Below are positions 1 to 43,340 of a stretch of DNA of 44,180 nucleotides, one piece after another. Each line of letters starts with the position of its first letter. Position 1 is the first letter of the stretch. The notes under the pieces are model-generated. The model had not been told where the DNA came from, did no database searches, and saw only the letters and a program-made list of their open reading frames with translations. The stretch is from Atractiella rhizophila. Lineage: Eukaryota. The translations under genes were made by a program, and so were the position numbers. The stretch covers positions 248,001-292,180 of the forward strand of contig MU271184.1 of NCBI GenBank assembly GCA_021432655.1. The letters are read 5' to 3'.

Positions 1-394
1 CTCTTCGTTCCATGCTTTCAGACTATTCTATATTTCTATCTACTTATGTATTACGGGTTTTCCCGCGATGTTGTTTGATCTTTTATCCGATTCATTGGCC
101 TATAAAAGAGGCCTCACTTGTTAATATAAATTCATCTTATTCCTCATCATCTTACTTCGCACTCACAGCAGAAAGCGCAGTAAGAATCGAGGTAAGTTCC
201 ACGGGCCGTAGAAGCGCCCCTGTAAGATCCATCGTCTTTATTCTGAGACCAAATAGCTTGGTAAGCGGCCCTACACTTCATAGCAAAAGCTGGTTCCTGT
301 CTCTCCATTTCGTTCAAGCTCTCATTTATTGATTGAGCCTCTTAATTCTCGCTCTAGTCGAGCTAAAGGAACTCGCTTTTGCAGTAGAGTCTCA
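1..394 (+). mobile_element. LTR-like repeat (3' part; runs off the window start)
   Basis: Homologous to the inverted copy at 41301-41617 plus 42161-~42243. Similarity stops at ...GAGTCTCA (394), an LTR-like CA end. Contains TATAAA (125-130), donor GAG|GTAAGT (192) and acceptor TTTGCAG (384). Confidence 0.7.
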
Positions 395-838
395 CAACTG
401 CTCGTACTCCTCATGCGTCAATGACAGCGTCATAAGAGGTGAATGGAAAGGCATCTTGCTCAACAGCACGAAATCAGCAGCAATGGAGAAGAGACATCCA
501 AAGACAACGGGGCAGGAGAGATTGTGATTAGAAAGATCGTTATGATTATAAAGCTCGTTGCTATTTCTTCTGGTCACCACTTGGATCACTGAGGGACCCC
601 AAGCGGGGGGTGCGGTAGCAAGTCGGGCAAGTATTCAAGTATAAAATTAGTTAGAATATATTATTATTATTAGTTTATTCTTAATGGTGCGTGGAGCCTC
701 TCCATTTGGCGGTTGTTTTGAATGGCCATCGTTCCCACATCTTCGCGGGCGTTAATTTTGGTGTGGTTGTTCCGTCCAGCGGAGAGTACCCGAGGCGTGC
801 CCACTTTCAACAGACCCCACATTTCGCGAAGTCGTCTC

Positions 839-1072
839 TGTTGAACCTGAGGTTCATCAGAAAGACAGGAAGAGGAAAAGATGAGTATTGCATGTGAGCG
901 TGTGATAGGATGCTTACCTGAGGTTCATCAGAAAGACAGGAAGAGGAAAAGATGAACCTCAGGTAATGCGAACGAGACTAAACTACAGTAGCGGACGGAA
1001 CAGTCAGACGCGGAATGCGTAAGATGAACGGGAAACCAAAAACGAAAAGAGAAAAACAACCAAGCTTCAACA
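839..1072 (-). mobile_element. Solo LTR, 234 bp, with 5-bp TSD
   Basis: Termini TGTTGAA...TTCAACA (perfect 7-bp inverted repeat). TSD GTCTC at 834-838 and 1073-1077. Confidence 0.9.
847..917 (-). other. Putative 71-nt spliceosomal intron inside the solo LTR
   Basis: Minus strand reads CAG|GTAAGC...pyrimidine tract...CTGAT...CTCAG|GT. Its last 38 nt (847-884) duplicate the upstream 918-955. A perfect 16-bp hairpin (914-929/951-966) covers the donor. Confidence 0.65.
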
Positions 1073-1209
1073 GTCTCCATGCCTTCCCGCTTCCTAAAAC
1101 GAATGTGGTAGCAAGACAGCGAATCTTGATTATTCTTAGGGGAACGAAGAGGACTCCGTCCAGCTCCATTCTTTGTTCTGGAATTCCGCTCTTCCTATTT
1201 GGTCAAGGT

Positions 1210-2112
1210 ACCCGCCCCTCCAGTCTCTTCCGGCAAACACCACCGCTCCTTAGCACGACACTTATCATCCGAACAGACCTTCGAAATGCTAAAGGAAATG
1301 CCACGAGCACAGGCATCGATCTTCGTCCAACTGCGATCTGGTCACATCCCTAACAACAACTACCTGCATCGAATAGGGATTGCGGAAGAACCGAACTGCG
1401 ACTCCTGCGGCATGAGGGATATGGTCACCCACCTCTTTTTTGAATGTGAGGAGCATGAGGAAGAAAGAAGAAAACTTAGAAGGAGACTCGCGAAAAAGGA
1501 TGTTCGTTTCAGATCCCTGGGCGACCTGCTGAGCGAACCGGAGGCGACGCAGGCGGTATGGGAATTTATTAGACGGAGCGGGAAATTCAAGTTATGGATC
1601 ACAAGGGCGCAGAGGGTTTTGGATAGAAGAAAGGCAAAAAGGAAACAAACGGCGGAGGCAAGAGGAGAAAAGGATGACAGCAGGGAGGATTGGGAAGATT
1701 AAAGACAACAAGTTACGTCCAGATTTTTCACTTCCGAACTGAGGCACCTTTTGCAGGAACCCAACGTACGACGGAGGTCGGAACTCATTTCACCTACACA
1801 CGGGTCCCCAAGGAGGAACACAATCTGCCATTCAGCATCTTCTAAGCATAATTTACCTCACACAAATAGCCATCGCGATTCAGTAACCCCCCACTCGGTC
1901 TTACTTCCACCAGTACCATAACATTATAAGGGGATTGTTGGGGGCCTTTTTCTTTACACATTACATGCATACTTCGCTTAGTTAACCCATTCATGGCCAA
2001 TTTCACCTCGTAAACCGTGTTTCTTTTCAATAATGTGATATCCCCCAGAATGTAGAGCTACGTTGACTATAGTCTGACAGCTCTGAAATATGATCACAAC
2101 AACAACAACAAA
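1210..2112 (+). mobile_element. 5'-truncated non-LTR retrotransposon (Tad1-like LINE)
   Basis: ORF 1199-1702 carries the LINE ORF2 C-terminal motif LRSGH..YLHRIG..CDSC..HLFFEC. (CAA)n tail at ~2098-2112. TSD TTTGGTCAAGGT at 1198-1209 and 2115-2126. Confidence 0.9.
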
Positions 2113-4839
2113 TCTTTGGTCAAGGTTAAGGTCGGAAACATCGACCTCCATAACTTTATCTTGTCAGGTAAGTATTATTTCCTAGAGAACAGGTAGTAAT
2201 GGAAAATGTGGCAAGTTGGGGGGCATTGAATTGGAACTTTTACTGAGGGATTAGAGCTCTGGCAGTATTTCTCGCTTGGTGGTCAATAGGTGGGCCGTTC
2301 GATCACAGCATTCTTGTCAGGCCCAGTTTGACAATAATCTAGATTCGGGCTACTAAAGGAATTCTAAAGCTGCTACACCAGTTGCGCCGTGAATCAGAAA
2401 TATAAAGGCTCTTCGATGTAAACATTGCTTTTCCTCGTCACAGCTGCCTGCAACAAAGAAGACGACATGTCACCTCCTGCCCCCACAGCTCCAGAACAAC
2501 CAGACCTCGCCCTCCAAAGTGCAGCCATCGAGGACATCCTCTTTACTAAACGTACCTACCTAACCGGTTTGCGCTTTCTACCTTTTGCACATGAACGACA
2601 TTCAACTGGAGGATGGCAGCTTGCTATGCATTCTACGGTTGGGATTTCATAGTTACTTTTCCTCAAGATTACAAGACAATGTGGAAAGCACAACGTTGGA
2701 CGCCAGTCCGAGCTGCCTTCTTCTTCAACCGGTAACTCTCTCCTCTCAACACTCACTGCGTACGTGGGAAGCTTATATGAGAATTATCAAGTTACTGGGG
2801 TATCTTGGACTGCATATTGGTCATGTGCCTTGCCTGGCTCAAAGTTGACCCGAAGACTTGTGACAAAATTTACCTTATCAAACCAGTTAGTGGTATTGCT
2901 GTCTTTTGTGTGTCCCCATTCGTGTCTCAAGAGAATCCCTGACGCATTGTAACCGCAGCGAGTTCCGAGTTCCTGCTTGCCGCAAGGGTATGGGCAATAT
3001 GGGCCCGTCGACGATGCTTGGTTCTTTGGTATATTTGCAGCAACCGGTTCCGCACTTAAGCTCTCTGAGTCGAGACTGTCACAGAAACCCTGCAGAATCC
3101 GATCTTAATAGAAAGCGGTTAACTTGGATGTCACCAGAAATTTCGGAGCCTTGTGACCTTGTCGACAATCGGCTCAGGTGTGTTCGCAAGTTAGACGGTT
3201 TTCAAACAGGCTGACAGTATAGAACTTATAGAACGCTAGTATATCTGCATGAACAACTGCTGGTGTGTCTTTGTCCTAAATATCGGATGTTAGAAAGACT
3301 TCGTTTGTGAATGCCTCCTTGGAGTATGACATTGTGCTTCATGGGATAAAACCCTGTACCCCGTACCCCTATACCGTTTGGTTACCCCCGGGGGCTAGAT
3401 CGATTTATTTCCGCACTCTTTCCCTCATCCGACTGGTTCATGGTTCAGAACCAGGCGCTCCATATTTTGTTTCTTCACCTTGCTGGATCCGACAGGTCTT
3501 ACAGAGTGTTTGGGGATGGCAAGGTGCTTTTACACCTCATTTACCTCATTTTGAACGTTAGCTACGCATGAGATCTGATTCTTGACAGCTCTTAGCATCC
3601 GATGGGCTCATCAAGTCTCCGCGATGGAGGAAGGAAGGAGAGAAGCCGAGGTTACTCCGGGTTGACTATTGGAGCAAACTGCCGAAAGGTGCGATCCTTG
3701 GTTTTGGTTTTGGTTAGGGTTATTGTCATTGGAAGAGGTGTCGTAGCGTAGTCACCGGAAGTCACGTTGTTGTCTGTGCTCATGTTCTCCCTGTGAGTGT
3801 TGAGTGTTATTGCTATTGCATGGCACGCTTGCGTCGCGCCGTTGGCGTCGTTTCCTCCTTAAGAAGGGAACTTGTCATAAACGTTATCTGTACGCAAAAA
3901 CAGTCCAACGAACCCTGGGTGTGTTGTCTATATTTTGCTACACCCTTCTCAATTTCGATGCTATGTTTTCAAAATCCAGCGCAAATGGTCAGGCAATACC
4001 GTGACTCACATTAGAGTGAATGACCCATGAACGACGTTGGCTGAGATTTGCACAGGCTTGCCGCGCTGTAGTTAGAATGAAGCCGGTGTTGAAATCCCAG
4101 CTGTTCTACACGGAGACGTTGCTGAATAGCGGTTGTCCAGCTTCCGAGCGGTCGCCTTCGTTGTCCGATGCCGGCGCCAGACGCCACTCAGGCAACATGG
4201 CTTCAGTTTAGAGCTGCGGTTTGCGGTCGTAGTCGCTTTGTATGGGCTCTCGATACTCATTCAGGAGCCGTTTAACCCTTATAGCTCTCTAAGGCACTCC
4301 AAAGTCTCTCCGCAGTTCTGTCCAACGTACCATATTCTGATGCTCAGGCTTTCCTAGAGCGTTCCAATTCACTTGGCAGGAATGTGAAACAAGCGGCCGA
4401 CAAGGAGGCACCGAGATCCTCGAACGGAACCGCAAAGTCGGGACTAAGTGGACTTCTAGCAGAAACAGTCCAAAAATAATCCTGCAGAGGCAAGAAGCCT
4501 ACGTCTCAAATGACATCATATCATTCCTTATCACGCCGAATATGAACGATGACAGTCTAGCCTGTTTGAATTCAGCGGAAGGACCCCTCAGACGGGGAGG
4601 GCTGTTTCACACCGATTTACTGGTTCGTCTCATTAGACGCCAGCAGGTCTAGCCTTCAATCATCCTGCACATTTTGTGGATCCCATTGGAACCGTGTTGT
4701 TGTCACCTTCAACTCCAATTGGCGAACCTTTGGCCCTGGGTACAAGTTCACTGTCGATCAAATACTCGCATGAGTCGCATATACCTAACCAACCACTCCT
4801 TATCCCTTATCCTTTCACTGCCTCATGTTTTTCATTGCC

Positions 4840-6478
4840 ATGATGAAGACGTATGCAACCTTTCTTGGATTTGCTCTCCCATTCGTAGCACAAGCCGCCT
4901 TGAGTGATGCTGGTACGTTGTTGTCCTTCGAATGTGGCAATCCGCCAATGAATAATAATGCACAGATGTTGCTTCCGTCTTCCCCGATTCACGAAACAAC
5001 CTCTCGACGTTGACCAGCGCAGCTGTTCGATTTCGGCAGTACGCTGCTTCGTTTGTCGCAAACTCATCGCACATTCTAAGTAGTTCTTCCAAATTGTTCT
5101 TGATATCGGGACCTGAACTAAGGACAGTCACCCTGAATAAAACTGATGCTACTTGGGACCTTGTTGGATGGATGGGCCATGGCATCGGTTCGCTCCGGAC
5201 TATTCTCACGGGAGCCCACTTCTGATGTGGAGACAGGAACTGGAATGAGCAATGGGATTTGTTTGCCATTTGGCCAAACGCCGACTACACCTGGACGATT
5301 TCACATCACGAACCAGCCCAACATGTCCTTCCGTCCCCAATCACTCCTTCCGCTGGTTTGTACAGTGTTATCCATGCGCTCTCAACCAATTCAACTTCTG
5401 GGACTCCTTGGACCGCCGTTTCCTTCATTCGCCCCCCTCTCTTTCGCAAATGTTGCGAGCTACGGTACCACTTCCAGCCAGGGCACGATTGAGAGAGCGA
5501 CCGGCCAGGTTCTGCTCTACTCTTATGGTTCACAAAATCCGGGGTAAATGGTGATCTCCAAGAACACTCCGATCAAGGGACTGCATCAGTAGAATTGTCG
5601 AAATCCTATATTCCTGCATCTACGGGAAATGACAGTGGAGGAGGTTCTGACGGATCCGGAGGCTCTGGCATTGGCCGGAGTAATCAACCTCAAGAAGCCA
5701 CCTCCGCTGGCTGGACTCGCCACAGCAAGCTAATAGCTGCTCACGGTCCGTTGCTTCTGTCCATCCATTGACTTCTCTCGGGCTCACCCATGAGACAGCT
5801 GCTTTCGGAGGCGTGGCTTTCATGATCATTTCTCCAGCAGCCATTTTGTTCGGACGGTACTTCCGGTCTCAGAAGTGGTTGCCCGCCCATCGAGCTCTCC
5901 AGATCGTCACGGTGTCTTTTATGCTCATTGCTTTCGCGTTGGCTGGAACAGCTACAGGTAATAACCCGAAGCATACGCATCACGTGAGTCTCCTGTAATA
6001 TTTAATGATATGATTGATTTGAACTGAGGCTCTGAGCAGAAAATCGGTTATGCCATGTTCGTGATCACGTTGTTGCAAGGCATGGTTGGTCTGATTGCCC
6101 ATCACATCAAATCCCCACCTAGGTCAAATCGCAGTCCTCTTCGTTGACGCATGTAATCGTTGGTATCGGTTTGGGTTATTCTCAAGTGCGAACCGGGATG
6201 CAGGAATGGGAGGATGAGGCATCATCAGGCATGTCTTCTCCGGACGGTGTGAGAATCGTCTACTACACCCTTTGGATGTGGAGGTTGCTGCTTATCTCAT
6301 CGGCATCTTCCTCTCTCCCACCCCGTACTTTCCTTGGAAGAGCGCTGAAGACTGTGCAGCAGAAGCAAGAGATGGAGAACAAAGCCTGAGAATTCTCCTT
6401 TCCTTTTTGCAGCCGTTTAAGCATTTTTTTTTGTGGAAACGGGTGTTAGTGCTGGTGTATAGTAATGTTTTGAGCTAA
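4840..6478 (+). pseudogene. Signal peptide + DOMON (CBD9-like) + cytochrome b561 membrane protein; multi-exon, frameshifted
   Basis: Signal peptide MKTYATFLGFALPFVAQA. DOMON-like GWMGHGIG/TGMSN..DLFAIWPNAD..WTISHH. b561-like helices with His: LIAAH, WLPAHRALQ, HTHHKIG, LTHVIVG. Several GT-AG introns. Frameshifts near 5255, 5435, 5543, 6143 and 6272. Confidence 0.75.
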
Positions 6479-7129
6479 ATCAAAATACACATTTCGCCAG
6501 CAGGCACATGTCATAGGGGGTCACTGTCAACAAAGGCTTGTGGCTTAGAGTAACTTATGAGCCCGGAAAGCTGTTAGCTAATTCATGTAGATCGGAGAGT
6601 AGTCGAACGATCTGTTGGATCGAAAGTGTCAAGGAAGAGGGGAGCATTGTAAGCTTGGGAGACGGCAGGAAAGGTAGACCATTCACGGCACAGGCAAGTC
6701 ATCCGTCTCTTTCAGAAGGCCATAATCTCAACAGCAAGCATATAGATGACAAGAGTGATCATCATGCCGTCCCTCTGAAGCCCTGATTTTACCTCTTATT
6801 TAGCACCACAATCATCCACTCAGATATCGATACTCCTTCTCAAGCCGAAAGACTAGGGTTTGTGCTCATCAGTGCAGATGTGATATCTGGTCAGGTTTCA
6901 GAAAAGGGGGGAGTGTTGTGTGTGAACCCCAGACGATGACACTCAAATAGGTGTTTGTTCCTAGATTCTTGATGTATGACATTTCCTCATAACCCATGAC
7001 AGCCCTACTAATCACAGCCAACTGACACAGCACCAACCGATATGTTCGCTGGCACTCTATCCTTTTCTGTCGCTAATGGTGGCTACTCAGTCTACATTCT
7101 GCTTGTCAGAACCACGCTTTATTAGGGTA

Positions 7130-7391
7130 GACAAGTGTGTCAGAGGCCTTCGTCCCTCAGGCCCCCCAACCCACTCGCAAGGGGCATGGCCCCTTGAACC
7201 CTACTGTGACTCTTGTGAGGGTTCGAGTCCAGTATGCAACACATTTTTCTACCCCTTTCAGAATAAAATTTCCTCGCGCATTCAGAAAGGCGCAAGCATG
7301 TTCAGTAAGATGGTGTAATTCATTTCGTTTCAATGTGCCTGCTGAAGGTGGTATGAACGCTCAAAAGTGCGTTTTATGACTCATGCCAAGA
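7130..7391 (+). repeat. Partial copy of the 5' half of the solo LTR at 41618-42155
   Basis: GACAAGTGTGTC...CTCATGCCAAGA aligns with the reverse complement of ~41895-42154. Confidence 0.85.
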
Positions 7392-7824
7392 ACGGATGGC
7401 TTTTAGAGGTAAGGATAAGGATAAGGATGCGCCTACACCAAGAGACAATTTATCTTTTGAGGAGCAAACAGGGATAAGGGTCGCACCAAATGGTTGTGTA
7501 AGGACTGTTCTCATGGATAGGGAGATGAATGGTGAGTCTTAGAGCCATAGGTTACCGCAAGGAATGATGAACCATTGCGACAGACGGTAATCGATTCGTT
7601 CGTAAAAAATTGGAGTCGAGAGGAAATAATTCACATAATCGATGATGAAACATGTTTTTACCCTACGCCTCATGTAGTCAATACTTATTTCGAATGATCT
7701 CTGCGCTACACACCTGCAGGACCCCTTGCCGGCGGCGACCCTCTATCAATTGTATGTGGCAGAACACCAGCTATTGAACAGCAGCAATGCGTTTCACCAT
7801 ATACTCGCCATATACATCACCTCC

Positions 7825-8078
7825 TGACAAAATCGTGCGCCTCCTCCTTTCGCCACTTGCGCACTTGCGCGTTTCCACTTTCGTCGAGCGTGTTCTGGAA
7901 CTGTGGCAACTTCTCTTTCGCCACAGGGACCTTAGCTATAAAACCCTTTCACCTGCAAGTGCGAGACTCACACTTATTTGTTATCTCGCACTTCGCAGGT
8001 AATGTAGTTCCCTTACATACTAAATGCAACACACACTTATTTGTTATCTCGCACTTCGCAGCGCTTGCAAATTTGTCA
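7825..8078 (+). mobile_element. Solo LTR, 254 bp, with 5-bp TSD
   Basis: Termini TGACAAA...TTTGTCA (7-bp inverted repeat). TSD CCTCC at 7820-7824 and 8079-8083. TATAAAA at 7937-7943. Confidence 0.9.
7999..8061 (+). other. Putative 63-nt spliceosomal intron inside the solo LTR
   Basis: CAG|GTAATG...TACTAAA...CGCAG. The last 30 nt (8032-8061) are identical to the upstream 7969-7998. Antisense arm 7951-7966 pairs with 7984-8000. Confidence 0.6.
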
Positions 8079-8194
8079 CCTCCTTCCGTGTAAAGCACCT
8101 TTGCCTCTTCAAACACCTTCAGAGCATTCTCATTCTGCCCACATCGAAAATCAATCTTCCCAATGTCCGTGGACACAATTGGCTCCCTGTGAAC

Positions 8195-8375
8195 AGTCCA
8201 GGCCAGTTTTTTTTGAACACTGGTTTTAGTGCCGGTAATTTACCTGGGTAAGGCTGGTAAAAATGAACCAATACCGGGCGAGAAAGCGGGAACGTCGAGC
8301 CTGGTTTTTTACTGGTGAGTAAACAGGTTTTTTTAGCTGTTTTTTACTGGGGAAGCCAGTATTCAATGATTCGCA
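8195..8375. repeat. Cluster of short CTGGT(T/A)n / CCAGT motifs; possible DNA-transposon subterminal region
   Basis: Repeated ctggtttt/ctggtaaaa/ccagtttt motifs in both orientations, abutting the truncated TPR fragment. Confidence 0.3.
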
Positions 8376-8630
8376 TTTCTGCAGGCAAAACCACTGCGAC
8401 GACACCCCGAGTTCAATCAGGATCAAGTAGTACACGCAGCTCGGTGAGTAGTTGTTCCTTGGAGCAGAAATGCCAGGCTGAACTAACTGCTGCATGCTGA
8501 TCTCGCGAGCCAGGTGGACGAGCTGATACGAATCGCTAGCCGTTCCCAATGTTTGTCGCGATTTCTCTACTTATCAGGCCTCAAAACATGCTGAATAGAG
8601 AATTTTACAGGTCTAAGAAGCGCTTTCCGC

Positions 8631-9815
8631 CTTCTCGCTCTCGAAAAACAAACCAGTTCGGTGTCTGACCAGCCTTCGACGACACGAATGCTTTTGGTAA
8701 TCGTGAAGTTGTTGAGTGAAAGGAGAGACTGGAATGAACTGAAGGAGCAGGTTCAGGCGTTGAGTAAGAAGCATGGACAACTTAGGGAGAGCACAAAGAA
8801 GATGGTTGGAGCGGTGATGGAGGTTTGGGAGGCGGGAAAGGCAGAGGAGGATGAGAGAGAGGGACTGACGGTCTGTCTGAGGGATGTTACGGAAGGAAAG
8901 GTTCGCTTTTCCCTATTCTTCTTATACTTACATTACGCACTGAGGAGCTGATTTCGGATTGATATGATAACAGATCTTCCTAGAACTTGAACGAGCTCGT
9001 CTCACTCGCCGACTCTCTGCGATGCTCGAACCAAAGGGAGAGGTGGCAGATGCGTAACGGATCATCCAAGAAAACGCAATTGAGACTTTCGGCGCCTTTG
9101 GCAGGAGAGAGAAGACGGCCTTCATCTTGGGGCAGATTTAGATTCTTGAAGCTCCGTTGCTAACAGGCTTCTCCGAAACCGCGACACCCCAAGGCATCTC
9201 CATCGACTTCCAATGAGCCATCGCGTAGCCATGACCAGGAGAAGCGACGAGTACTTAGGAGAACTATACAAGTTGATTGGAGAAGAAGGATTGACGCTGG
9301 TTGCCTGCATGATAAATACGATCCACTATCCCGGTGTGTCCTCTCTTGCTCAAGTTTAACCGGCCGGTTCCATCCTAAACTACGTGGGGGGCAGCGCTGC
9401 ACTTTCTCATTTCACAAATCTCTTCCAACGCCTCGATACCTTAACACTGCACCTATCCATCATCCACCCGTCTCCCCGTTCGCTTCCTCTTCCACCTCTT
9501 TCTCCACAAAGAGCTTCGTTCGAATGGTTCAACCTACCGAGAAGATTGTCTGTGCACTGGCCATGCTGTTCTCCACCTCAACTTTGTCGTTCTTGAATCT
9601 CGATTCGACTTTGATAGACTCTGAAGCTTAGCCGCTAGGTCAGATGGAAACAGCACAGGGAGCAGGATGATTGTTGGAGTATTGTGATAAGTCAGTATCC
9701 CTTCTTTTAAGCCTTATCTCACAATGAGCATGACCTCTTCGAATTCTAGCCGGATAACCTCACGCAGCGACGGACTGGGGGGAAACGGAGCGAGCTTGCT
9801 AAGGAGATAAGACAA
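8631..9815 (+). pseudogene. RPN5: 26S proteasome lid subunit Rpn5/PSMD12 relic
   Basis: LLALEKQT..SD..STTR..LSKKHGQL..LRDVTEGK, intron 8901-8973, then IFLELERARLTR..ETFG..RREKTAFIL. Premature TAA at 9055. Only scattered degenerate C-terminal traces (RIT..ETE..DKT) to ~9815, so the end is uncertain. Confidence 0.85.
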
Positions 9816-10888: not shown

Positions 10889-10999
10889 ATGTGGAAGAAA
10901 GGCTAGATTACACAGTTGGAAGGGAACGATCGCTCAATGTTCATGTGGAAGAAAGGCTAGAGTACACAGTTGGAAGGGAACGATCTCGCTCAATGTTCA
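10889..10999. repeat. Tandem duplication, 2 x ~54 bp
   Basis: ATGTGGAAGAAAGGCTAGA...CTCAATGTTC starts at 10889 and 10943; one substitution and a 2-nt indel. Confidence 0.95.
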
Positions 11000-14400: not shown

Positions 14401-14650
14401 AATCCCGTACTCCCACCGGTTCCCTGCCTCCCCCAACTCATCTCCAGTTTCTTACTCTGGTGCTCCGGTCCCATGGATGGATGGCATTCCTAAAGCCATA
14501 GCCCCTTCTTGGACCGTCACAGGCAACACTGCTTCACGATATGTCTCTGGCATCAAAGCATGGCACATCTTCCATGGATACCCCTGGATTGGGATCACAG
14601 GCCTGATGAGCTGAAGATCTGATGCAAAGGAATAGCCAGACTCCAGGGTA
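11450..14650 (+). mobile_element. DIRS/Ngaro-type retrotransposon, 5' part (gag-like, RT, RNase H, YR N-terminus), degenerate
   Basis: RT 12573-13283: SPISIVNK..FRLVVDFS..DVKAAFR..FGCASCPG..HWVDD. RNase H (DNTGV) 13343-13645. YR N-terminus TLDSYSSAI..YVSGIKAWH at ~14330-14650. Confidence 0.88.
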
Positions 14651-17300
14651 CAGTCAGACCCCTAAACATGCAGGCCCTCAGTGGACCACCTAAGCTTGCA
14701 TATAAAGGGTGCTTGCGTATGAGCAGGGGCACCAAAAAAGGGGACTTGTGGCTGGAATATCATCGGAAAACATCGGATATCACAAGTATGTATGTTATAT
14801 AGTGTTTGGAATCAACTGGAACCACAAAGCAAAACTTAATGTCATTTAAACAGATCAAGCCATCCATTTGACAATGAGAGCCTTTTGCTTCAGGAATCGC
14901 CCTAAGTGTTGCAAATATTCTCCATTTCTCATACAGAACTGTGTCAGTGAGGATGATGCCATGGTGAAGCTCCTGCTTGACCCATTGGATGAGTGCTGCC
15001 TCGACCTCTGGATAGTGACGATGTGTCGTTTTTTCGTGGCCAAGTTCTCAGATTTGTCTGCTTCTTTCCGAATTTTGTGCTTGTCTTTGAAGTATTGAGA
15101 CAGAGTTGCTGCACTGAGAGTATTGAAACCATTCTTCCTCCAAATTCATTCCCTTATTCTTCTCAGCATAGTCTCTTCAAAAGTCATGTTGCCAAACGGA
15201 AGTCCTCCAAGGAACACTCACCAAAAGGTCTACTGCTTTCTATTCCAAGGTATGTTAAATAAGTATTCTAGCATATATGAGACACATGCAATTGCAGAAG
15301 CTCGTCCTCAGGCACCTAGGATATCCAGGTGAGCTGAGAGAGGATATTTGGCAATTTGCATCTGCACCTGATGTGCTGAAAATGTTTGTGAGTGCCTGTG
15401 TCTTTGAGCAGAGCTGGTATGAGCAGAGTATGGAGATGAGTCTGGTGTAGGCAGTTGAGGCGCGTGATCTCGGCTGTAGGCCGATGCAGAGGGGGGAGGG
15501 AAACGAGTGCGGCGTGCAGGGGGTATTGGTCTAAACGAAGCAGCAGAAGCCAGGAATTGTTGAGGAGAAAGCGCCTGAGGTGGGGTAGATGACGTTCTTG
15601 ATGTTGTTGCGGATGTTGTACACTCTCGTACTTTTAGGCGAGATGATGGGGTTCCACTAGAACTGGACGGACCTGTAAACAAAGCGCCTACAATCAATTA
15701 AGTACCTTCTTCAATTCCCTCCATAGACTCTCGACCTTCTTCTACAATTGGCCAAAGCTGTGAACCTGAACTTGGCACCGAAGAAGAATCTGTTGCATTC
15801 ATTCGCTGGTCACTTGTCACAGGGCTCGCATTATTCTCCTGGCGATGACAAAGTTGTTCCTGCTATTGAAGAAGTAGGCCTCTAACTAAATTAGTAAGCT
15901 CTTCGACCTGATGACTGAGACGTTGATTGTCGTTAAGAAGGCGACGGTTCTCTAACTCAGTAGGTTCAAGTGGGGAGGAGGCAAATGTTGAAACTATAAT
16001 GCCGTGAGCTTGTACCGACTTGGAGGAATAAAGGCTACGAACTATCAGCGACAGGAGTGAGCTTTCCCAGAGGTTAAGGAAACATCAACACTGCCATATG
16101 ATGCTAAGAAATTAGAATGTGTATGCTAAGACAAAACTGTGGATGCAACGTAATGCGCAGCCAACTATTTTTCTTGTAGGTGAAATGGAAGTTCGGCAAC
16201 TGGTGCTGATCCCACACATGATGAGGCATACGGAGCTTTACAAAGGTACCTGCCTTCTTGAACATTAATTTGTAGAGCAATCTGATCTTCTTGTCGCTGT
16301 ATCATTGGGTTGCTCTCATTCAAGGCTAAAGTTCTAATGTAAGCTGAGCAAGAAGGATGATGTGCACCCACACATTATGACATCTTCAGTGCTCTGCTCA
16401 GCAGAAATAGGAACGATAGAGTTATTGCTTAGGACTGCATCTGGAAGATATATATGAGACTGAGTCTCAAAACTCACAGCTGGAAACCCTACCATGCAGG
16501 TTCTCTGCCCTCTTCCCCTTCCTGACTGACCGGCATACAGAGCCTGCTCTGGAGGAGGAAACACTCATTACTGAAACTGCGATGATTGAGCATCAACTGA
16601 AAGCTCTTGCAAGACGGAACAATGACGTTAGCGTAGTGGAAAAAAATGAGAGTAAGCTCTGCTCACCGTGAAGCACAGGAGCAGCAACATTAGATCCAAG
16701 CTCTTCATTGACACCCTGCCCAAAAGTAAATTCGGCTCCTTCAAGAGCACGAATTGGCCAAGAAACGGTGATGGTCAAGTTATGGGTGCATCGAGGAGGA
16801 TGAGGAGGATCTGGAATCTGCTCAAGATCTTCTCCTTCAAGCACTTCCGTTTTAACCCTCTTCATAGCACACCGATCTGGTCCCAGAGAGCTGGCTGACT
16901 CTGGAATCTCGTGACACATCTGCATGCAAATGTTACTGCACGTAAATCATCCGACATAGGCGCACACTACGAAGTGAGCTTCAAGTCTTTCTGGATGGAA
17001 TGATCGAGGTGGTTGTACTCTCTGCTGATTGGCTTCTTCTCTCCTCTTCTTCGTCACTTTCAGAATGTTCAACTAACGATGTTCACTGGCTTTAGTGCTG
17101 TTCTGAAAGGCCAAATGACCATACCATTTGGAGTGGATGGCTCAGCCATCCTCCAAGGTTGTCTTCTCATGGAAATTGTAATTGTGCTTTCTGCGACATT
17201 GCTCTACCTTGCATTCAGGGCAAGATGGAGATAGCACATTCTTATACCTTCAGAATTTGCTGACAGGCTGATAGGAAGGCAACAAAACATCTAGATTTAA
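14651..17300 (-). mobile_element. Pogo/Tigger-like (CENP-B HTH) DNA transposon, 3' part; DDE domain missing
   Basis: TA|CAGTCAGAC terminus at 14651. Minus strand ~14830-15120 gives EVEAALIQWVKQE..ILTDTVLYEKW..LSNGWLDLFK (Tc5/CENP-B HTH). Inner boundary uncertain. Confidence 0.7.
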
Positions 17301-19918: not shown

Positions 19919-20353
19919 CAGTTAGACTTGCCAATATGCATACTAGTCAGTATGCAAACCTCTTTACTTGCAAGGAAAAATCGTCCACCAACCTCGTTCC
20001 TATGTATTTTGTCCTTTATGCATTGCAGATTCAGTTCTCAGTATGCAAGCAGTTGCTTGCAACTTTTGGCTGTGATTACATGTTGAGAGTGCGGCACGTG
20101 ACCTTCAAAACCTTCTTTTGGCACGCAAAAGTCATGGTCACAACTCCCTTGAAATTTTATCCTTGTCTCAACCCACCACTCGTCAGCCATGGTGCCAAAA
20201 ACCAAAGAAGCACATAAAATAGCAATGCTCTTTCAATCACAACCACAGCAGCACATCCAAAGCGTGTTTGGGGCAACCTTTCTTCAGCCCAACCTGTCAC
20301 TCTCAAGCGAAAGTGTTCCCATCCCATGAATCTTGATAAACTGGTGTTTATAG
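19919..20353 (+). mobile_element. 5' end of the pogo-like element
   Basis: TA|CAGTTAGACTTGCCAATATGCA matches the other end CAGTCAGACCCCTAAACATGCA at 15/22 positions. 20253-20353 recurs at 30523-30623. Confidence 0.75.
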
Positions 20354-30522: not shown

Positions 30523-30983
30523 ACATCCAAAGCATGTTCAGGGCCATCTCTCTTCAGCCCAACCTGTCACTCTCAAGCCAAAGTATTGCCATCCCACGAA
30601 TCTTGACAAACTGGCGTTTATAGACTATGCTGAGAAGAATAAGGGAAGGCTCAATTGTTGTGAGAGGGAGTGATGCTGTGTGATGGTGAGGTTGCGAGAC
30701 AGCTTAGGATGCTGTGCACAAAGGCACTGAAGGAGTTTTCAAGCGAAAGTTCGTGAAGGAGTCTCGGGTACAGACCACCTTGGATTCTTTCGCGCAGAAC
30801 AAGTGAGCACAGTACTACAGTTGATTCCAAACACCATATAACATACATACTTGTGATATCCGATGTTTTCCAACAATATCCTGCCACAAGTCCCCTTTTG
30901 CGTGCTCCTGCTCGTATGCAAGCACCCTTTATATGCAAGCTTAGGTGCTCCGCCGAGGGCCTGCATGTTTAGGGGTCTGACTG
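30523..30983 (+). mobile_element. Internally deleted second copy of the pogo-like element
   Basis: 30523-30623 matches 20253-20353; 30622-30647 matches rc(15149-15174); 30818-30983 matches rc(14651-14818). Encodes a pogo-like C-terminus QTTLDSFAQNK*. Confidence 0.8.
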
Positions 30984-31137
30984 TTGTCCCCAAAGTCTTG
31001 CTCGATGCACGGAAGGGTTATGTGTGCTCTGCTGCCCAGCACATTCATGCAGCTTTGCCTGCGGAAGGTCTGTTTAACCATGTCGGAGAAGACACAGTCT
31101 TTCAGGATGAATCTGAAGACTCTATGTTGTCATGCTA

Positions 31138-34100
31138 TGGTGCAGGTCCGCTAGTCCCACATCAGAGGCTACAGCATGAGTCACCATGACTCACAGGTCC
31201 CAAATCCCAGAAAATTTTTCCTGTCATCCTGCTTCTGAGGTTCTGGCTCCTCACATGCATATGTGTGAGCTGCCCACAGTGAAATGCATTAATGTATTCA
31301 CACTGTTCATAGTATTAAATGGAAACCCTAGTATATGTACAAACCCTCAAGCCTGAACCGGCTCCCCTGTTGCAGCAGCTACTTCTGGAACACGTCGGTG
31401 TGATGAATACTTGCGCACTTGAAATCCAGCTTGCATGACATCCTTGCCCTCGGCATAAGCTTGGATCCATCTGTGAGTTCTTCTCTCAAACTTTCTGATA
31501 GTGGACAGTTGCACAGACTTGAGAGCCACATGCATGTTCTCCTTCAATCCTTCAAAGGTGTACCGGCAGTTTTCTGTTGAAGTAATCAGTAACTTGTCAA
31601 CATCCAGAGAAGCTGCAAACCTCTAAGGTAGTACTTCATTCTTCCCCAAAAAAACTCAATGAAATTAAGCTCACAATGAAACTTCGGAAGCATTAAGGCA
31701 TAGTGCCCAGCTGCTTCAATTGCTTCGACCACTGCTCCTTTTTGGGCACGGAAGTCAGGCTGTGATGCAAGTAAACGCTCTGTGCCATGAAATGAGTATT
31801 GGATGGTGGAATGTAAGATGTTACTCACCAGCACAACATGTATGGTCTGCTTGATGGTCGGTTGCTTGCTTGCATCGACCTTTCAGACCCTTCTCCGGCC
31901 ACAAGCCTCGTTCCTTCAACACCAGCTCCATTCCCTTCGGTTTTCCAGCGTCAGGGTGACCGGGGGGGCATATCATTGACTGTCCAATCCTCTGCCCATC
32001 CCTCATGAACCATCCATCCCGCATAATCCGAGCATTTTTCCCACCTGGACTGGATATTAACAATGAATGCCACAGAGGAAGAGGAGTGGCCTATCAGGTC
32101 TCAAATTCATATCAGATGCTCTCAGTGCATCTGCTGCAAAATGATTATGACCTTGGGAATTATCAATCGACACCAGCACCCTTTGATTGGGATGGAGCCG
32201 TTCAAAAACAGGAATAAACTTTTCCGTAACCTATATACAATTTTAGTGAAGTTCTGATAGTCTCCCATGACGTACCTGCTTAAGCATTTTCTCTCCAGTC
32301 CAGAACCCTTCATGGTTCTTACCATACTCCAACTGTTCTCCACACTCTTCCAACCAACCGTATGTTGAGCAAATAAAATCTGAACGATGTATCCCTCGGC
32401 CCTGCCCCTTCTTCCGTAGCTTTGCTTGACCATCCAGAATCCAGCAGTGTTTCTTTCCGTCATTGGCAGTACACGTCGACTCATCATGCGCGACAAGGAC
32501 GATAGGCTGAGTTTCGGGGGGCAGTGGTTTCTTCACTTCAAGGTTAACGTCCTCAGAAGACCATTCGCGCAGTCGAGGCAGGAAGCTTTGGAAGGTTGGT
32601 ACGAAAACCTTCTGACGATATTCAACAACATCAGGTCGCTCATGGCCACTGCTCAACTCCAATCAGCACATTATGCATATGTGAAAGTAATGATGTACTC
32701 ATAATATAGTCCCTTTTTATATTCTGTCCATCGAAACCCTTCACGCCGCAACCATTTCCTTGCAGTACGTAACGAAATCCCCCGTTTCGGTTTCCACCCA
32801 GCATTGGGAAAGAAAGTCTCCTCCAGATAGCCCTTCAGCCTCATTGGCATGTCAGTGTGCAACTCCTCTTTCACTGATTTCTCAAGTTGAGATGGAATCA
32901 ATACATTCTGAGAATAGGCCGCCAATTTGGCTGGATCCATGTTCTCCTTTTCCTGCCGAACCCAAGCTCTCAGCATCTCACAATGCTCTGGATCATTCAA
33001 CAAAGAGAAGGTTTTCGCATGTCGGCCTTGCAGATCATCAGCTTGCAATGTCCAAAGGTTAGCACAGGAAGACAGACCACGGTTAGACATAGGGAGTGCT
33101 CCTTGCTCAGTTTCAAACCGGTCCGCCCAGCTTCGGATGTTCTTCGCTCCGTAAGACATCCCGAAACGATGAGCTGCAGCTGCTGTCTGCGATGCCTTGA
33201 GACGGGTATACCTGCCAGTCTTCATGAGGTTGAAGAAGCACTCCAATGCTCGAACTCGACGTGCTTGGAGCTCAGTCTCGAATTTCTGTTTCTTGAGCAA
33301 CCTCTCTGCCATCTCCGCGCCTGTTGCATACCGCCCCAGCCGTGCTTGGTGCCGCTCAAACGCTTCGCTTTGCACATATCGCTGTCGTTGTCTCTTGCGT
33401 GGGGGAGGGAGAGAGGGATCAGAAGGGGAGGCAGGGCCGGTGTTGCAGTGTCCGAAAGGTGGTTTCTGTGGTCGTCTCTCGTCGGAATCAGTTTCATCGT
33501 CATCAGGTGACTCTTCATTCTCCTCGGCTGATGAAATGATAAACGTCTGAATATTGAATGGATCATCGAGAGGAGAAGGAGGTGAGGTTGCAAGGGTAGG
33601 TGCTGTACTATGCTGGCCATCGTCTTCGTGAGCCACTGGGACGTCACGAGTGGTATGGGGAATGGAGTAAGGCGGTGGAAGAGGCCGGTTGTTGATGAGG
33701 AAGGCTTTGAGCGGGTAGCATGTCTTTGCTTCCCTGAAAAACCAATCAGTGCCAGCTTCAGTGCTAAAAGAGATTGAGAAAGGAGAGGGGAAAATAAAAA
33801 TACAAACTGTTCCAGCAATTCTTGCTTTTTCTTACGGTTATGGCGGGTTTGCTTTGGCACCTTCGTACCAATGTTGTATCCTGAAGAGCGTCCCAATGCC
33901 TTTTCTCCCTTCTTCTGATTCAACTCTCGCCCTCCCTCAGACATCAACTCAGCAAAAATGCCCGGAAGTTGTGCTTTAGCTTCTGCAATGAGTATCTGTC
34001 CTTCAGCAGTTTCAGGAGCAAGCTCATTGGCACTCTCTTCTGATGCAGATTCACCCTCAGAGTCAGAACTTTGCTCTGATGAAGCCCAACTTGCATCATC

Positions 34101-34744
34101 AAAGGTTCCGAAGCAATTCAAAGTCTCTTCATGCTTACTGCAAGAAGAGATCTCAAAAGGTTCAGGCAATGGAGCATCTGCTAATGCGAGGATCTCGCTT
34201 TCTTCATCAGAAGAATCTGAGAAAAGTAACCAGGGGTCTGTAACAGATCCTCCCAGTATCTTCAGAGATTGTCGTTGCTGACTCTTCGCAGCTTTAGCTG
34301 CCCTTGCTGTGACAAGCTTTTGGTCACGAGCTTTCATGCTCTTTGAGCGTCTCCCCATGCTGCTGAAAGATTTGGCGAAGGGGGAAATGGAAAAGAAAGA
34401 AGGGAAACGTCGATGTTGCAGACAATTGGAACCTGAGGACTTCTGTTTGTGGCGCTAATGCAGCACCGGAACCGAAATCGACCGTTCGGAGCCGAACGCC
34501 GACATCGGAACTAACTTTGCCAAAGTACACTGGAGATGTACAACGGCCTGTCCCAATCGCAAGATCTTTGAAAATAAAACCTTTTCTGGAAGTCAACCAA
34601 TAAAAAATCTGTCTTACAAAACTCTTCTAAATACACCAAATAAGCTATATGTAAGACAGATTGTTGAAATGTTCACTCTGGGAGTCACGATTTTGGAATG
34701 ACTCATGCTGTAGCCTCTGATGCGGGACTAGCGGACCTGCACCA
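31138..34744 (-). mobile_element. Full-length IS630/Tc1-mariner superfamily DNA transposon, 3607 bp
   Basis: ~46-bp TIRs TGGTGCAGGTCCGCTAGTCCC.. with one mismatch (31138-31183 and 34699-34744). TA duplication at 31136-31137 and 34745-34746. Confidence 0.95.
31347..34358 (-). CDS. Multi-exon DDE transposase (one intron donor mutated)
   Basis: Exons splice in frame: LVAHDES (D), IDNSQGH (D), LPKFHCELNFIE (E), plus KPKGM..LKERGLW and YSSHRRV. Seven predicted introns; the intron at 32045-32094 starts AT instead of GT. Confidence 0.85.
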
Positions 34745-41300: not shown

Positions 41301-42268
41301 TGAGACTCTGCAAAAAGCGAGTTGCTTTAGCTCGACTAGAGCGTGAACTAAGAGGCTCAATCAATAAATGAGAGCTTAAAAGAAAAGGAGAGACAGGAAC
41401 CAGCTTATGCTAGCCACACTGAAGTGTAGGGCCGCTTATCAAGCTATCTGGTCTCAGAATAAAGACAATGGATCTTACAGGGGCGCTTCTACGGCCCGGG
41501 GAACTTACCTCGATTCTTACCACACTTTCTACTGTGAGTGCGAAGTAAGATGATGAGGAATAAGATGCATTTACACTAACAATTGAGGCTTCTTATATAG
41601 GCCAATGAATCGGATAATGACGCGATACAGATCTGTAAGCACTGCAAATCGAGCCACAAAAGCGATTAGAATACATTTCATTGGTACTTAAGAGAAATAA
41701 CTTCACCTGCAAATGCGAGCCACAAATCTAGCATATTTGTGAGAAATATCACCGTAGCCCGTCGCCGTTCCTTGAGCCAATTATCAAGCAATAGAAGAAG
41801 AAAAAAGGAAAGAGAAAAAGTCACAAGACCAAAATGACGTACGAAGTGAGAAATGGGAATGCGCAAATGTCCATCTTATTCCTCTATCATCAGTGTCTTG
41901 GCATGAGTCATAAGACGCACTTTTGAGCATTCATACCTCCCTCAGCAAGGATGTTGAAATGAAATGAATGACACCAGCTTATTGCATATGCTTGTGTCTT
42001 CCTGAATCTGCAGGGAAATTTTTTTCTGCAGAGGTCAAAAAATGTGTTTCATACTGGACTCGAACCCTCACAAGGGTCACAGAAGGAAGGGTTCAAGGGC
42101 CATGCCCCTTAAGAGTGGGTTGGGGGGCCTGAGGGACCCGTTGACACACTTGTCAGATAAAGATCAAACAACATCGCGAGAAAACCCGTAATACACGAGT
42201 AGATAGAAATATGGAATGATCTAAAAGCGTGGAACGAAGAGGAAGCTGAAGGGAACCAATGAGTCTCG
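41301..42268 (-). mobile_element. LTR-like repeat (copy of 1-394) interrupted by a solo LTR; far boundary uncertain
   Basis: 41301-41617 is rc of ~83-394; 42161-42243 is rc of 1-~83. Confidence 0.75.
41618..42155 (-). mobile_element. Solo LTR, 538 bp, with 5-bp TSD (Copia-related)
   Basis: Termini TGAC...GTCA. TSD GATAA at 41613-41617 and 42156-42160. ~41618-41875 is homologous to the Copia LTR at 43374-43549. Contains a putative intron 41642-41706 with a duplicated ~20-nt unit. Confidence 0.9.
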
Positions 42269-42846
42269 CCAGGGAATCGACGGATCTCGCCTTCCAGCTT
42301 CTAAATAAGGCTAAAATACCATGCAGTTATCTCTCCCTTTTCTCCCGATCTATCGTACCCACTCTGAGTCGACAGGAGAGGTGTAGAGAGACGGGGGAGT
42401 TGTGAGGTACTCAATGGTCAATGGGACTTCCAAGTTAGGCAGGAGCCGCCTCCAGAATAGGAAGGTATTGCCGCATTTGACCATTGTGTCTCCCAAGTCC
42501 ATTGGGATTTGAGGGGCTGAGTTATTGGCAGGAGTGACAGGATGATAATGAGAAAGCTTGCTAACATCGAACGGATCTCGGCATCCACCCCATCTGCCGC
42601 CACTTGAATTGAGGTCCTCCGAATATGCTGTCATGCATGCTTTTCACTCCCATGCTGCTCCGATTCCTTTCAACCTTCCAAAAACGGCGAATTTTTGTCC
42701 GTTTCTACGTTCCAATTCAAGGAGGTCTCCCAGATTATGCTCTTTCATTCAATATCTAACCGGGCTATTTTGCAGCTAGTCCACTCCACTGTTCGATCCA
42801 AAACCTGCTCCTCAACCCTCCAGCTTCAGAGCTCTTTGACTGAAGA

Positions 42847-43340
42847 TTGCCATTAGTGGATGTGAATGAAGACCTTGTTGGCTATTCCGATTCCGATTTC
42901 GCCGCCAGCCACGATCGAAGGTCCATTTCAGGAACGCTCTTCACGCGCGCTGGAGGAGCGGTAATTTGGAACAGTAAGAAACAATCTCTAGTTACGTTGT
43001 CATCATCAACAGAGGCCGAATATGTTGCATTGTCGTCAGCCGCAAGAGAAGCATCATGGATCAGGAATCTCTTCAAGGATCTCCAAATCCCTCTCGCTTT
43101 TCCCATCACTATCTACGGCGACAACCTTTGTTCCATCAACTTGCCAACAAGCTCATCTTCAGACAACGAACCAAACATATTGATGTCCCATTTCACTATA
43201 CACGCGAATGTGTCTCTAATCGAAAAATCGAGCTTCAATACATGGATACGAAGGAACTTCCAGCAGATATCCTTACAAAGGGAGTAAGCAAGATGAAGTT
43301 GGAAGGAGCAATGAGTAAATTTGGGATGATGAATGAGTGA
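42847..43340 (+). mobile_element. Ty1/Copia RNase H (3' end of pol), one frameshift
   Basis: LVGYSDSDFA..RRSISG..WNSKKQ..STEAEY..DN..RTKHIDV..ADILTK. Confidence 0.95.

Follow-up and report, generated by a model that had tools for sequence, protein, structure and literature searches.

Retrotransposition is the textbook route of intron loss, and the loss of an intron from a marked Ty element is said to have been the original proof that such elements move via RNA. Can a long terminal repeat (LTR) element appear spliced like a host gene and yet hand an intron, carried inside the LTR itself, to its progeny? The question is raised by F1, a solo LTR in a 44,180-nucleotide (nt) stretch of the Atractiella rhizophila genome (assembly GCA_021432655.1, contig MU271184.1, positions 248,001–292,180), referred to here as the window. 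An initial annotation of this stretch proposed that F1 holds an intron that is gated by a hairpin and regenerated during replication. We consider it likely that the feature is the end of a copia-type LTR, comprising the repeat (R) and unique 5′ (U5) regions, with one (window) or two (relatives) spliceosomal leader introns that would be rebuilt from the spliced leader. The sequence comparisons below support well the proposal that the element's leader, once spliced, was reverse-transcribed and makes up the 3′ part of the LTR, where it stays identical to the exons upstream. This processed copy is probably rewritten at each cycle.

The layout of F1 agrees to the base with its first description: a TATA box, an antisense arm, a unit X (X1), a donor-like GTAATG, an exact copy of X (X2) and a 17-nt tail, all between target-site duplications (TSDs; Table 1). 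Widening the repeat to 33 nt gives a 97% match (7966–7998 versus 8029–8061, period 63). Viewed as periodicity, 96 nt at the 63-nt period make 1.5 copies, and Tandem Repeats Finder makes no call. Exact-seeded local direct repeats with a period of 35–200 are found at three places in the 44-kb window, and the LTR ends of F1 and of a second solo LTR, F2, account for two of these. The candidate introns of the window start with GTAATG, GTAAGC, GTGAAG or GTAAGT, and those of relatives described below with GTAAGT or GTGAGT. No match to Rfam was seen in the window at the gathering score, nor between 7700 and 8200 at E ≤ 1.

That F1 and F2 are solo LTRs is indicated by TG..CA termini with short inverted repeats (TGTTGAA..TTCAACA in F2), 5-bp TSDs (CCTCC and GTCTC, respectively, with GATAA around a third LTR, C1), an empty site for F1 and copies of both at other loci. 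The last two points come from contigs of two runs, named run X1 and run X2 and neither recorded as RNA, which were compared with positions 1–8400 of the window; statements about them rest on the joints listed. One run X2 contig joins 7801 to 8076 via four other letters, that is, without 7802–8075, and so resembles an empty site. One run X1 contig matches 7825–8009, starting exactly at 7825, and then enters a different flank, so it must stem from another F1-family copy with the same LTR start, X and then GTAATG. Another matches 909–1072, stops at 1072 and enters another flank, as expected of another F2 copy.

The evidence that X2 is derived from RNA comes from relatives. Using the copia RNase H fragment at 42844–43284 as query, we recovered 80 metagenome contigs with related elements; the fragment had no relative among viral contigs. 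Many of the relatives have the order polypurine tract, LTR, primer-binding site (PBS; GGTTATGGGCCC) and gag, so their LTRs are delimited on both sides. In eight elements (L051, L065, L070, L077, L071, L016, L002 and both LTRs of L060), the end of the LTR has a two-exon layout: Xa, a GT..AG segment of 49–56 nt, Xb, a second stretch of 14–20 nt beginning with GT, then Xa and Xb contiguous, the tail and the PBS. The segment missing from the downstream copy starts with GTAAGT, GTGAGT, GTGAAA, GTGAGA or GTACGA. In all eight elements it ends in AG and has a CTNAY-like branch motif 10–20 nt before its end. Downstream, Xa and Xb are joined exactly at the junction; in L051, the join reads ..CACTGAGGT|TATCTACC.... 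Duplication of DNA cannot drop an internal GT..AG segment from one of the copies, whereas splicing followed by reverse transcription does so. Judged from its sequence, then, the downstream copy is a processed (spliced) copy of the leader. Splicing of the leader in vivo is what these DNA copies of an exon–exon junction would imply. By analogy with the two-exon relatives, we read X2 of F1 as a processed leader copy that would act as an R-equivalent acceptor.

The upstream boundary of the repeat can be placed relative to the promoter. X1 begins 32 nt past the initial T of the TATA box in F1 and 33 nt past it in L065, L016 and L060; L002, with TATAAG, gives 32 by hand count. Among the other eight LTR sequences tested, none has a TATAWA within 80 nt. 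The distance from a TATA box to the start of transcription is usually about 32–33 nt. Taken together, the start of the repeat at TATA +32/33, its splice-like edges and the PBS indicate that the copied unit extends from the predicted cap site as far as the PBS and includes the splice junctions. This is the content expected of minus-strand strong-stop complementary DNA (cDNA) made from spliced RNA, and the copied unit appears to be just that.

Within elements, the two copies have evolved in concert. In L051, L065, L070 and L077 they are identical at 188/188 positions, and between these same elements Xa is 73–88% and Xb 52–76% identical (12–48% difference). The 5′ and 3′ LTRs of L060 each have private changes in both X1 and X2, a pattern that fits copies which were identical on insertion and have decayed since. 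Most of the 7.5% of differences between these two LTRs are C-to-T or G-to-A changes at CpG (e.g. CGAG to CAAG, TTCG to TTTG), which suggests methylation-linked decay or decay resembling repeat-induced point mutation. Although the length of X ranges over 20–50 nt and that of the spacer over 14–54 nt, their sum stays at 53–80 nt in every element; a constraint on intron length would give such a total. The initial claim that the intron is rebuilt through spliced strong-stop cDNA, which keeps the X copies identical, thus draws support from the eight two-exon processed copies, the start at TATA +32/33, the identity within elements and the presence of the layout in both LTRs of an element.

How widespread is the layout? 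A PBS-anchored census of the 80 loci yielded 33 LTR 3′ ends abutting a GGTTATG.G PBS, with four more lying too near the start of a contig. The layout is present at 7/33 of these ends, and its absence from the other 26 marks it as a trait of a lineage, not of copia elements at large. At 8/33 ends there is an exact repeat (≥10 nt) whose second copy ends ≤70 nt from the PBS; these ends have 13 repeat pairs in total. GT directly follows the first copy in 11 of the 13 pairs (chance expectation, 1 in 16), and the two exceptions are L045, with a chance 10-mer, and L060, in which a mutation has shortened the exact match. We also scanned both strands of the 80 loci without anchoring. AG|GT..AG lay at the repeat boundary in 14 of 304 local repeats, and all 14 were on the pol-sense strand, although one (L074) is an unrelated long tandem. 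An element with a different PBS (TGGTAGCGCC), the GC-rich L061, has a one-exon layout in both LTRs. The layout is likewise carried by both LTRs of L060, which are 92.5% identical to each other, and must therefore survive transposition.

Six of the layout-bearing elements fall into one RNase H clade (Shimodaira–Hasegawa-like approximate likelihood ratio test, 89) whose seventh member, L058, has its LTR cut off by the end of the contig. The tree was made by a quick method from 91 columns, with L060 and 6 other loci excluded for a short match or a stop. No intron-less by-product of the clade labelled D/E was found among the 80 loci. In L051, L065, L070 and L077, the pol stop, one LTR, the PBS and gag lie on a single contig; these are either tandem elements that share an LTR or assembly collapses of two LTRs, and in both cases the LTR has a boundary on each side.

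What replication cycle could produce this arrangement? Transcription would start ~32 nt past the TATA box, at the first base of X1, and splicing between the donor that immediately follows X1 and the terminal AG of X2 would leave X, the tail and the PBS at the 5′ end. Minus-strand strong-stop cDNA made on this spliced RNA would be complementary to the tail plus X. It would transfer to the unspliced LTR copy at the RNA 3′ end and anneal there to X2, not X1; synthesis would then continue through the spacer, X1, the arm and the unique 3′ (U3) region. The progeny LTR would combine U3, arm, X1 and spacer from the 3′ end with X and tail from the spliced 5′ end, with the intron restored and X2 overwritten by X1 in each cycle. 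For X2 to serve as acceptor, a poly(A) site would be required in or after X2, perhaps directed by the AT-rich end of the spacer. The arm in U3 could prevent splicing of the 3′ copy and/or permit its polyadenylation, by analogy with foamy viruses. Unspliced RNA would give the same LTR by ordinary R transfer, and either RNA could serve replication. Here the premise of the initial annotation that LTR elements normally lose spliced introns does not necessarily hold, since replication can proceed from unspliced RNA. For the element, the benefit would lie in the intron-dependent expression of genes in basidiomycetes.

In its most general form, this becomes the proposal that a fungal copia clade and at least two further lineages replicate by "split R". 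The spliced mRNA would be the usual template. Its 5′ repeat would be assembled by splicing and would match a processed copy inside the last LTR intron, so that one or two LTR introns are rebuilt in each cycle, and the U3 arm would keep the 3′ copy unspliced and permit its polyadenylation. The whole would be an adaptation to hosts whose mRNAs need introns. To this broad version we assign an even chance.

One competing account holds that the repeats are duplications made at the DNA level or by slippage of reverse transcriptase (template-switch scars) and that their splice-like edges arose by chance. LTR tandem repeats are common, and hairpins favour template switching. We nevertheless regard this as highly improbable: every family has 1.5 copies, not 2, GT follows the first copy in 11 of the 13 repeat pairs of the census, the flagged repeats all lie on the sense strand, and the repeat always starts at TATA +32/33. 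The absence of the internal GT..AG segment from the downstream copy in eight elements already contradicts the account. Simple tandem duplication, as in a minisatellite, was rejected on the same grounds, among them the 1.5 copies and the internal segment omitted downstream in the relatives. A second start site at X2 was also rejected, because the TATA box precedes X1 and copying offers no way to insert an intron.

Other readings accept the processed origin of X2 and dispute its role. The spliced leader may have been copied only once, into an ancestral LTR, with unspliced RNA alone replicating ever since (R being X1 plus spacer) and X2 retained as a part of U5 for some other role, for instance in packaging, as a 5′ hairpin or as a second binding site. 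Such a historical relic is unlikely in our estimation, although several observations speak for it. Unspliced RNA reproduces the LTR faithfully, and L016 and the 3′ LTR of L060 have the same Xb1/Xb2 difference, at a CpG. This shared difference weighs against continual rewriting; it may reflect parallel deamination, or rewriting may be absent in some cycles. The window LTRs are also young (the other F1 and F2 copies are ~98–99% identical, with 3 mismatches over 185 nt for F1 and 1 over 164 nt for F2), so their identical X copies say little on their own. Against the relic stands the contrast between 188/188 identical positions within elements and 12–48% difference between them, which needs continual rewriting or very strong pairwise selection. 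Direct repeats, moreover, are easily lost during reverse transcription and need regeneration to persist.

The remaining account, to which we give a rather small chance, has no acceptor role for X2: the RNA would end at the end of the spacer, and strong-stop cDNA would be joined to it end-to-end in each cycle, by microhomology or a non-templated jump, leaving X2 as a by-product. The AT-rich spacer ends (CAATATA, ATTATTAT, TTAATTG and AAATGCAACA) could hold poly(A) signals, and the repeat boundary coincides with the predicted 5′ end of the RNA, both of which would suit end-to-end joining. However, the spacer|X2 junction is identical in L016 and both L060 LTRs, free of A-runs or filler, as templated copying gives, and X1, with perfect homology over 24–40 nt, lies only 14–54 nt upstream and should catch the cDNA first. 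The 53–80-nt sum of spacer and X also fits the size of an intron, whereas distance to a poly(A) site gives no reason for such a total. We therefore favour replication through a spliced leader with X2 as the acceptor.

A further element of the initial annotation was the hairpin, thought to hide the donor in the 3′ LTR. The arm lies 5′ of the predicted start site and so would be present only in RNA read through the 3′ LTR. In F1 it pairs with 7984–8000, with one bulged C, and the 66-nt hairpin has a predicted energy of –26.8 kcal/mol (z = –6.9, none of 200 shuffles as good). The stem over the F2 donor, 14 perfect base pairs, reaches into GTAAGC (–28.8 kcal/mol, z = –6.7). The F1 hairpin pattern had no exact match in metagenome contigs and no match in viral contigs. 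Among relatives, the sequence upstream of X1 extends a stem over the exon end and donor in 11/11 elements folded. When folded in short context, the donor became less accessible in 8/11, a comparison in which the added 25 nt had no shuffle control and the donor window of L061 was 2 nt off. In a duplex test restricted to the donor, the number of shuffles (of 500) that were as good was 34 for F1, 0 for F2, 7 for LTR-A (another LTR of the window) and 312 for C1; the test is weak, as 2/8 host donors also scored low (11 and 17 of 500).

For 7/8 two-exon elements, folding predicts that removal of intron 1 makes the second donor more accessible. At L051 840–880, L065 765–800 and L077 960–1000, the region of the second donor (e.g. 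TACTACT) has its complement at the 3′ end of intron 1 (e.g. TAGTAGTA). Such pairing means that removal of intron 1 should expose donor 2, as a possible switch for ordered splicing. These models give a weak computational hint of an ordered splicing cascade set off by removal of intron 1.

Several points weigh against the gate or against the reading of the LTRs as a whole. Whole-leader folds give small, inconsistent changes and no steady masking of the donor. C1 has no upstream arm, and its X1 starts only ~13 nt past the nearest TATA-like sequence, AAATAT. In F1, the branch-like motif closest to the acceptor, TACTAAA, is ~38 nt away from it, and position +5 of the donors GTAATG and GTGAAG is not the usual G, although loose donors are also seen in the host. 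Finally, a run X2 contig (depth 157) joins 7976 to 8041, which amounts to the loss of one F1 period plus a 1-nt deletion. Run X2 contigs have seven ordinary 48–56-nt GT..AG joints in 1–8400, and this run is thus derived from RNA. The contig in question also contains the arm and differs upstream (7874 joined to 7951). It could represent spliced RNA or the transcript of an intron-less LTR variant such as C2, and is suggestive and no more; if it is spliced RNA that contains the arm, it would argue against gating. What survives of the hairpin gate is therefore the upstream complementarity, which has a precedent in foamy virus, and not steady masking. The gate is plausible as a conserved local complementarity and is the least secure part of the model.

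The initial annotation held that the layout recurs in other LTRs of the window. This is fully so for F2, and in part for the rest (Table 1). In the sense direction, F2 reads arm, X..CCTCAG|GTAAGC, a 31-nt spacer, X..CCTCAG|GTTCAACA and the end of the LTR, with an exact 40-nt repeat of period 71. C1 has a 20-nt X twice, with one indel (X1, 41707–41726, followed by GTGAAG; X2, 41642–41661, ending in CAG), and its short relative C2 has an arm and a single X, lacks both spacer and intron, and represents an intron-less form. C2 is also the only LTR of the window to abut the copia RNase H remnant and GAGGGGGAG tract, F1 and F2 being solo; in relatives that have the layout, the polypurine tract, LTR and GGTTATGGGCCC PBS are present. 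LTR-A shows TATAAAAG at 101–108, CGAG|GTAAGT and, 10 nt from the LTR end, TTTTGCAG, and no clean copy of X in 1–394. C1 is nested in a second, inverted copy of LTR-A (41308–41617 plus 42156–42241) that is 89–91% identical to 1–394. Both LTR-A copies retain the TATAAAAG, CGAG|GTAAGT and TTTTGCAG sites at 91% identity. Branch motifs are well placed in F2 (CTGAT) and C1 (CTAAT). The candidate introns of the window measure 63, 71, 65 and 193 nt, compared with host introns of 48–56 nt (seven) and 669 nt (one) in RNA contigs.

These families had at first seemed to have little in common. That view needs revision: F1, the C1/C2 family and LTR-A all have the acceptor motif CTCGC.TTTGCAG, and F2 and LTR-A agree over the first ~20 nt of the leader, with the start of X in F2 aligning with TATA +31 of LTR-A. 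On these motifs, the LTR families of the window are to be seen as distantly related.

Table 1. Coordinates of the LTRs and of their parts in the window. Exons and introns are predictions.
Feature	Position	Strand	Description
Solo LTR F1	7825..8078	+	254 nt, termini TGACAAA..TTTGTCA
F1 left TSD, CCTCC	7820..7824	.	From sequence; empty-site-like contig
F1 right TSD, CCTCC	8079..8083	.	From sequence
F1 TATA box, TATAAAA	7937..7943	+	First T 32 nt 5′ of the first base of X1
F1 arm, ACCTGCAAGTGCGAGA	7951..7966	+	16 nt, antisense to the end of X1 and donor GT
F1 X1	7969..7998	+	Predicted leader exon 1 (predicted start site to donor), ends CAG
F1 candidate intron, GTAATG..CAG	7999..8061	+	63 nt, a 33-nt spacer plus X2
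F1 X2	8032..8061	+	Exact 30-nt copy of X1, ends CAG
F1 tail	8062..8078	+	17 nt, putative leader exon 2/U5 end, reaches LTR end
Solo LTR F2	839..1072	-	234 nt, TSD GTCTC (834–838, 1073–1077), F1-like layout
F2 arm, GCATTACCTGAGGT	956..969	-	Sense-upstream of X1, pairs with CCTCAG|GTAAGC (folding)
F2 X1	916..955	-	40-nt repeat unit; exon of 38 nt, then GT
F2 candidate intron, GTAAGC..CTGAT..CAG	847..917	-	71 nt
F2 X2	845..884	-	Exact copy, then tail TCAACA to LTR end
Solo LTR C1	41618..42155	-	538 nt, TSD GATAA, nested in LTR-A copy, 24-nt tail
LTR C2	43375..43549	+	175 nt, short relative of C1, after copia RNase H remnant and GAGGGGGAG tract
LTR-A	1..394	+	Cut at window start; candidate intron 192–384 (GTAAGT..TTTTGCAG), 10-nt tail

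A PSMD12/CSN4-like gene follows F1, which is in sense orientation and precedes the gene's first recognisable exon (8595–8948) by ~500 nt. This exon is 84–87% identical to two Atractiella rhizophila proteins, in keeping with a host near Atractiella (Pucciniomycotina). F1 sits within a transcribed stretch, with a GT..AG joint spanning 7532–7583 and high contig depth over 7841–8400. F1 could be a source of a promoter and leader intron for this gene. If the split-R reading is true, solo LTRs would scatter promoter-plus-intron cassettes before host genes, and F1, at this distance from the PSMD12/CSN4-like gene, would be a case in point.

Decayed transposable elements abound in the window. On the + strand, a transcribed unit with several exons (4350–6452) has five 48–56-nt GT..AG introns in the RNA-derived contigs, with loose donors (GTACGT, GTAGTT, GTTCGC, GTCCGT and GTGAGT); none of its open reading frames (ORFs) of at least 90 amino acids has a Pfam match. 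An inverted 169-nt repeat (14650–14818 and 30818–30984, 91% identical) adjoins an ORF for a Tc5 transposase helix-turn-helix domain (14763–15047, - strand). The pair is probably a pogo/Tc5-type DNA transposon or its ends, and as a likely DNA transposon it was set aside as a possible relative of the LTR layout. Also set aside were a 101-nt patch shared by 20253–20353 and 30523–30623, which lacks LTR structure, and a 54-nt tandem at 10889–10999 (2.0 copies, 94% identical), an ordinary repeat outside the LTRs without splice-like edges. No tRNA genes were found in the window, and an ORF of 410 amino acids (33225–34454) had no usable match in the protein atlas.

If the interpretation is correct, it would add a replication variant to LTR retroelement biology: an element that appears spliced like a host gene would hand its intron to its progeny by storing a processed copy of its leader as the repeat for strand transfer. 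It would extend to retrotransposons the logic by which foamy viruses tell the 5′ from the 3′ LTR by RNA structure, and provide a natural counterpart of engineered split-intron vectors. It would also offer a testable link between intron-dependent gene expression in basidiomycetes and transposable element design. The order TATA +32, X, GT, spacer, X, tail and PBS gives a signature for genome mining.

How does this arrangement compare with known systems? In the open-access literature covered (PMC and bioRxiv, with supplements outside the scope), no description was found of an intron wholly inside an LTR together with a copy of the leader. According to the Rogers model, introns are reportedly created by duplication of a segment containing AGGT. 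As in that model, the acceptor AG here would come from a duplicated exon end, and splicing would restore the unduplicated sequence. Unlike in that model, the duplicate is bounded by the predicted transcription start and the splice junctions, which points to an origin from RNA and not to a simple tandem duplication of DNA. Elements of the DIRS type have an internal complementary region, a tyrosine recombinase and a circular intermediate. They too carry terminal sequence a second time inside the element, as a bridging template from which the ends are restored in each cycle; however, DIRS elements use no splicing, and no route through a recombinase and a circle is proposed here.

Introns as such are no novelty in LTR retrotransposons, Drosophila copia being an intron-containing example. 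In Ogre, EVADE and Cer1, which are spliced by the host and yet keep their introns, these are internal (gag/pol) and serve to make subgenomic RNAs (PMC12786077). As far as the available part of that source goes, their introns persist only via the unspliced template, and none lies wholly in the LTR or comes with a copy of the upstream exon. Solo LTRs that act as introners also tie LTR sequence to spliceosomal introns; in the available account, it is the entire LTR or element that splicing removes from a host gene (PMC12130899), whereas the intron described here would be inside the LTR and serve the element. A need for introns in mRNA accumulation is reported for several basidiomycetes, with no pucciniomycete among them in the portions of the sources at hand (PMC3744415, PMC7017817, PMC8379801, PMC4935854).

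The closest engineered parallel is the split-intron retroviral vector, in which reverse transcription places a splice site in the 5′ LTR (Ismail et al. 2000, per PMC3182074). There, as in our proposal, the provirus has an intron that is absent from the packaged RNA and is assembled by reverse transcription. The vectors differ, to the extent that the available text describes them, in being engineered, in acting for one cycle, in having donor and acceptor in different parts of the vector and in lacking a processed, R-like repeat. The closest natural parallel is foamy virus. Its donor lies in R, and at the 3′ LTR a fold dependent on 13 nt of U3, sequence that only the 3′ copy of the RNA contains, masks this donor (Schrom et al. 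2013, PMC3694450); at the 5′ copy, U1 binding suppresses polyadenylation in the LTR (PMC3694450). The elements described here resemble it, on what the available part of that report describes, in having a donor (here a candidate) inside the LTR, which would lie downstream of the start site predicted from a TATA spacing of 32–33 nt. They resemble it also in that sequence from upstream of the start pairs with the donor region, as in F1, F2 and all of the elements folded, C1 being the exception. In foamy virus, however, the acceptor lies far downstream and the available account includes neither a leader repeat nor rebuilding of an intron, whereas here the masking is predicted and the intron would be closed by a processed copy of the leader and restored in each cycle.

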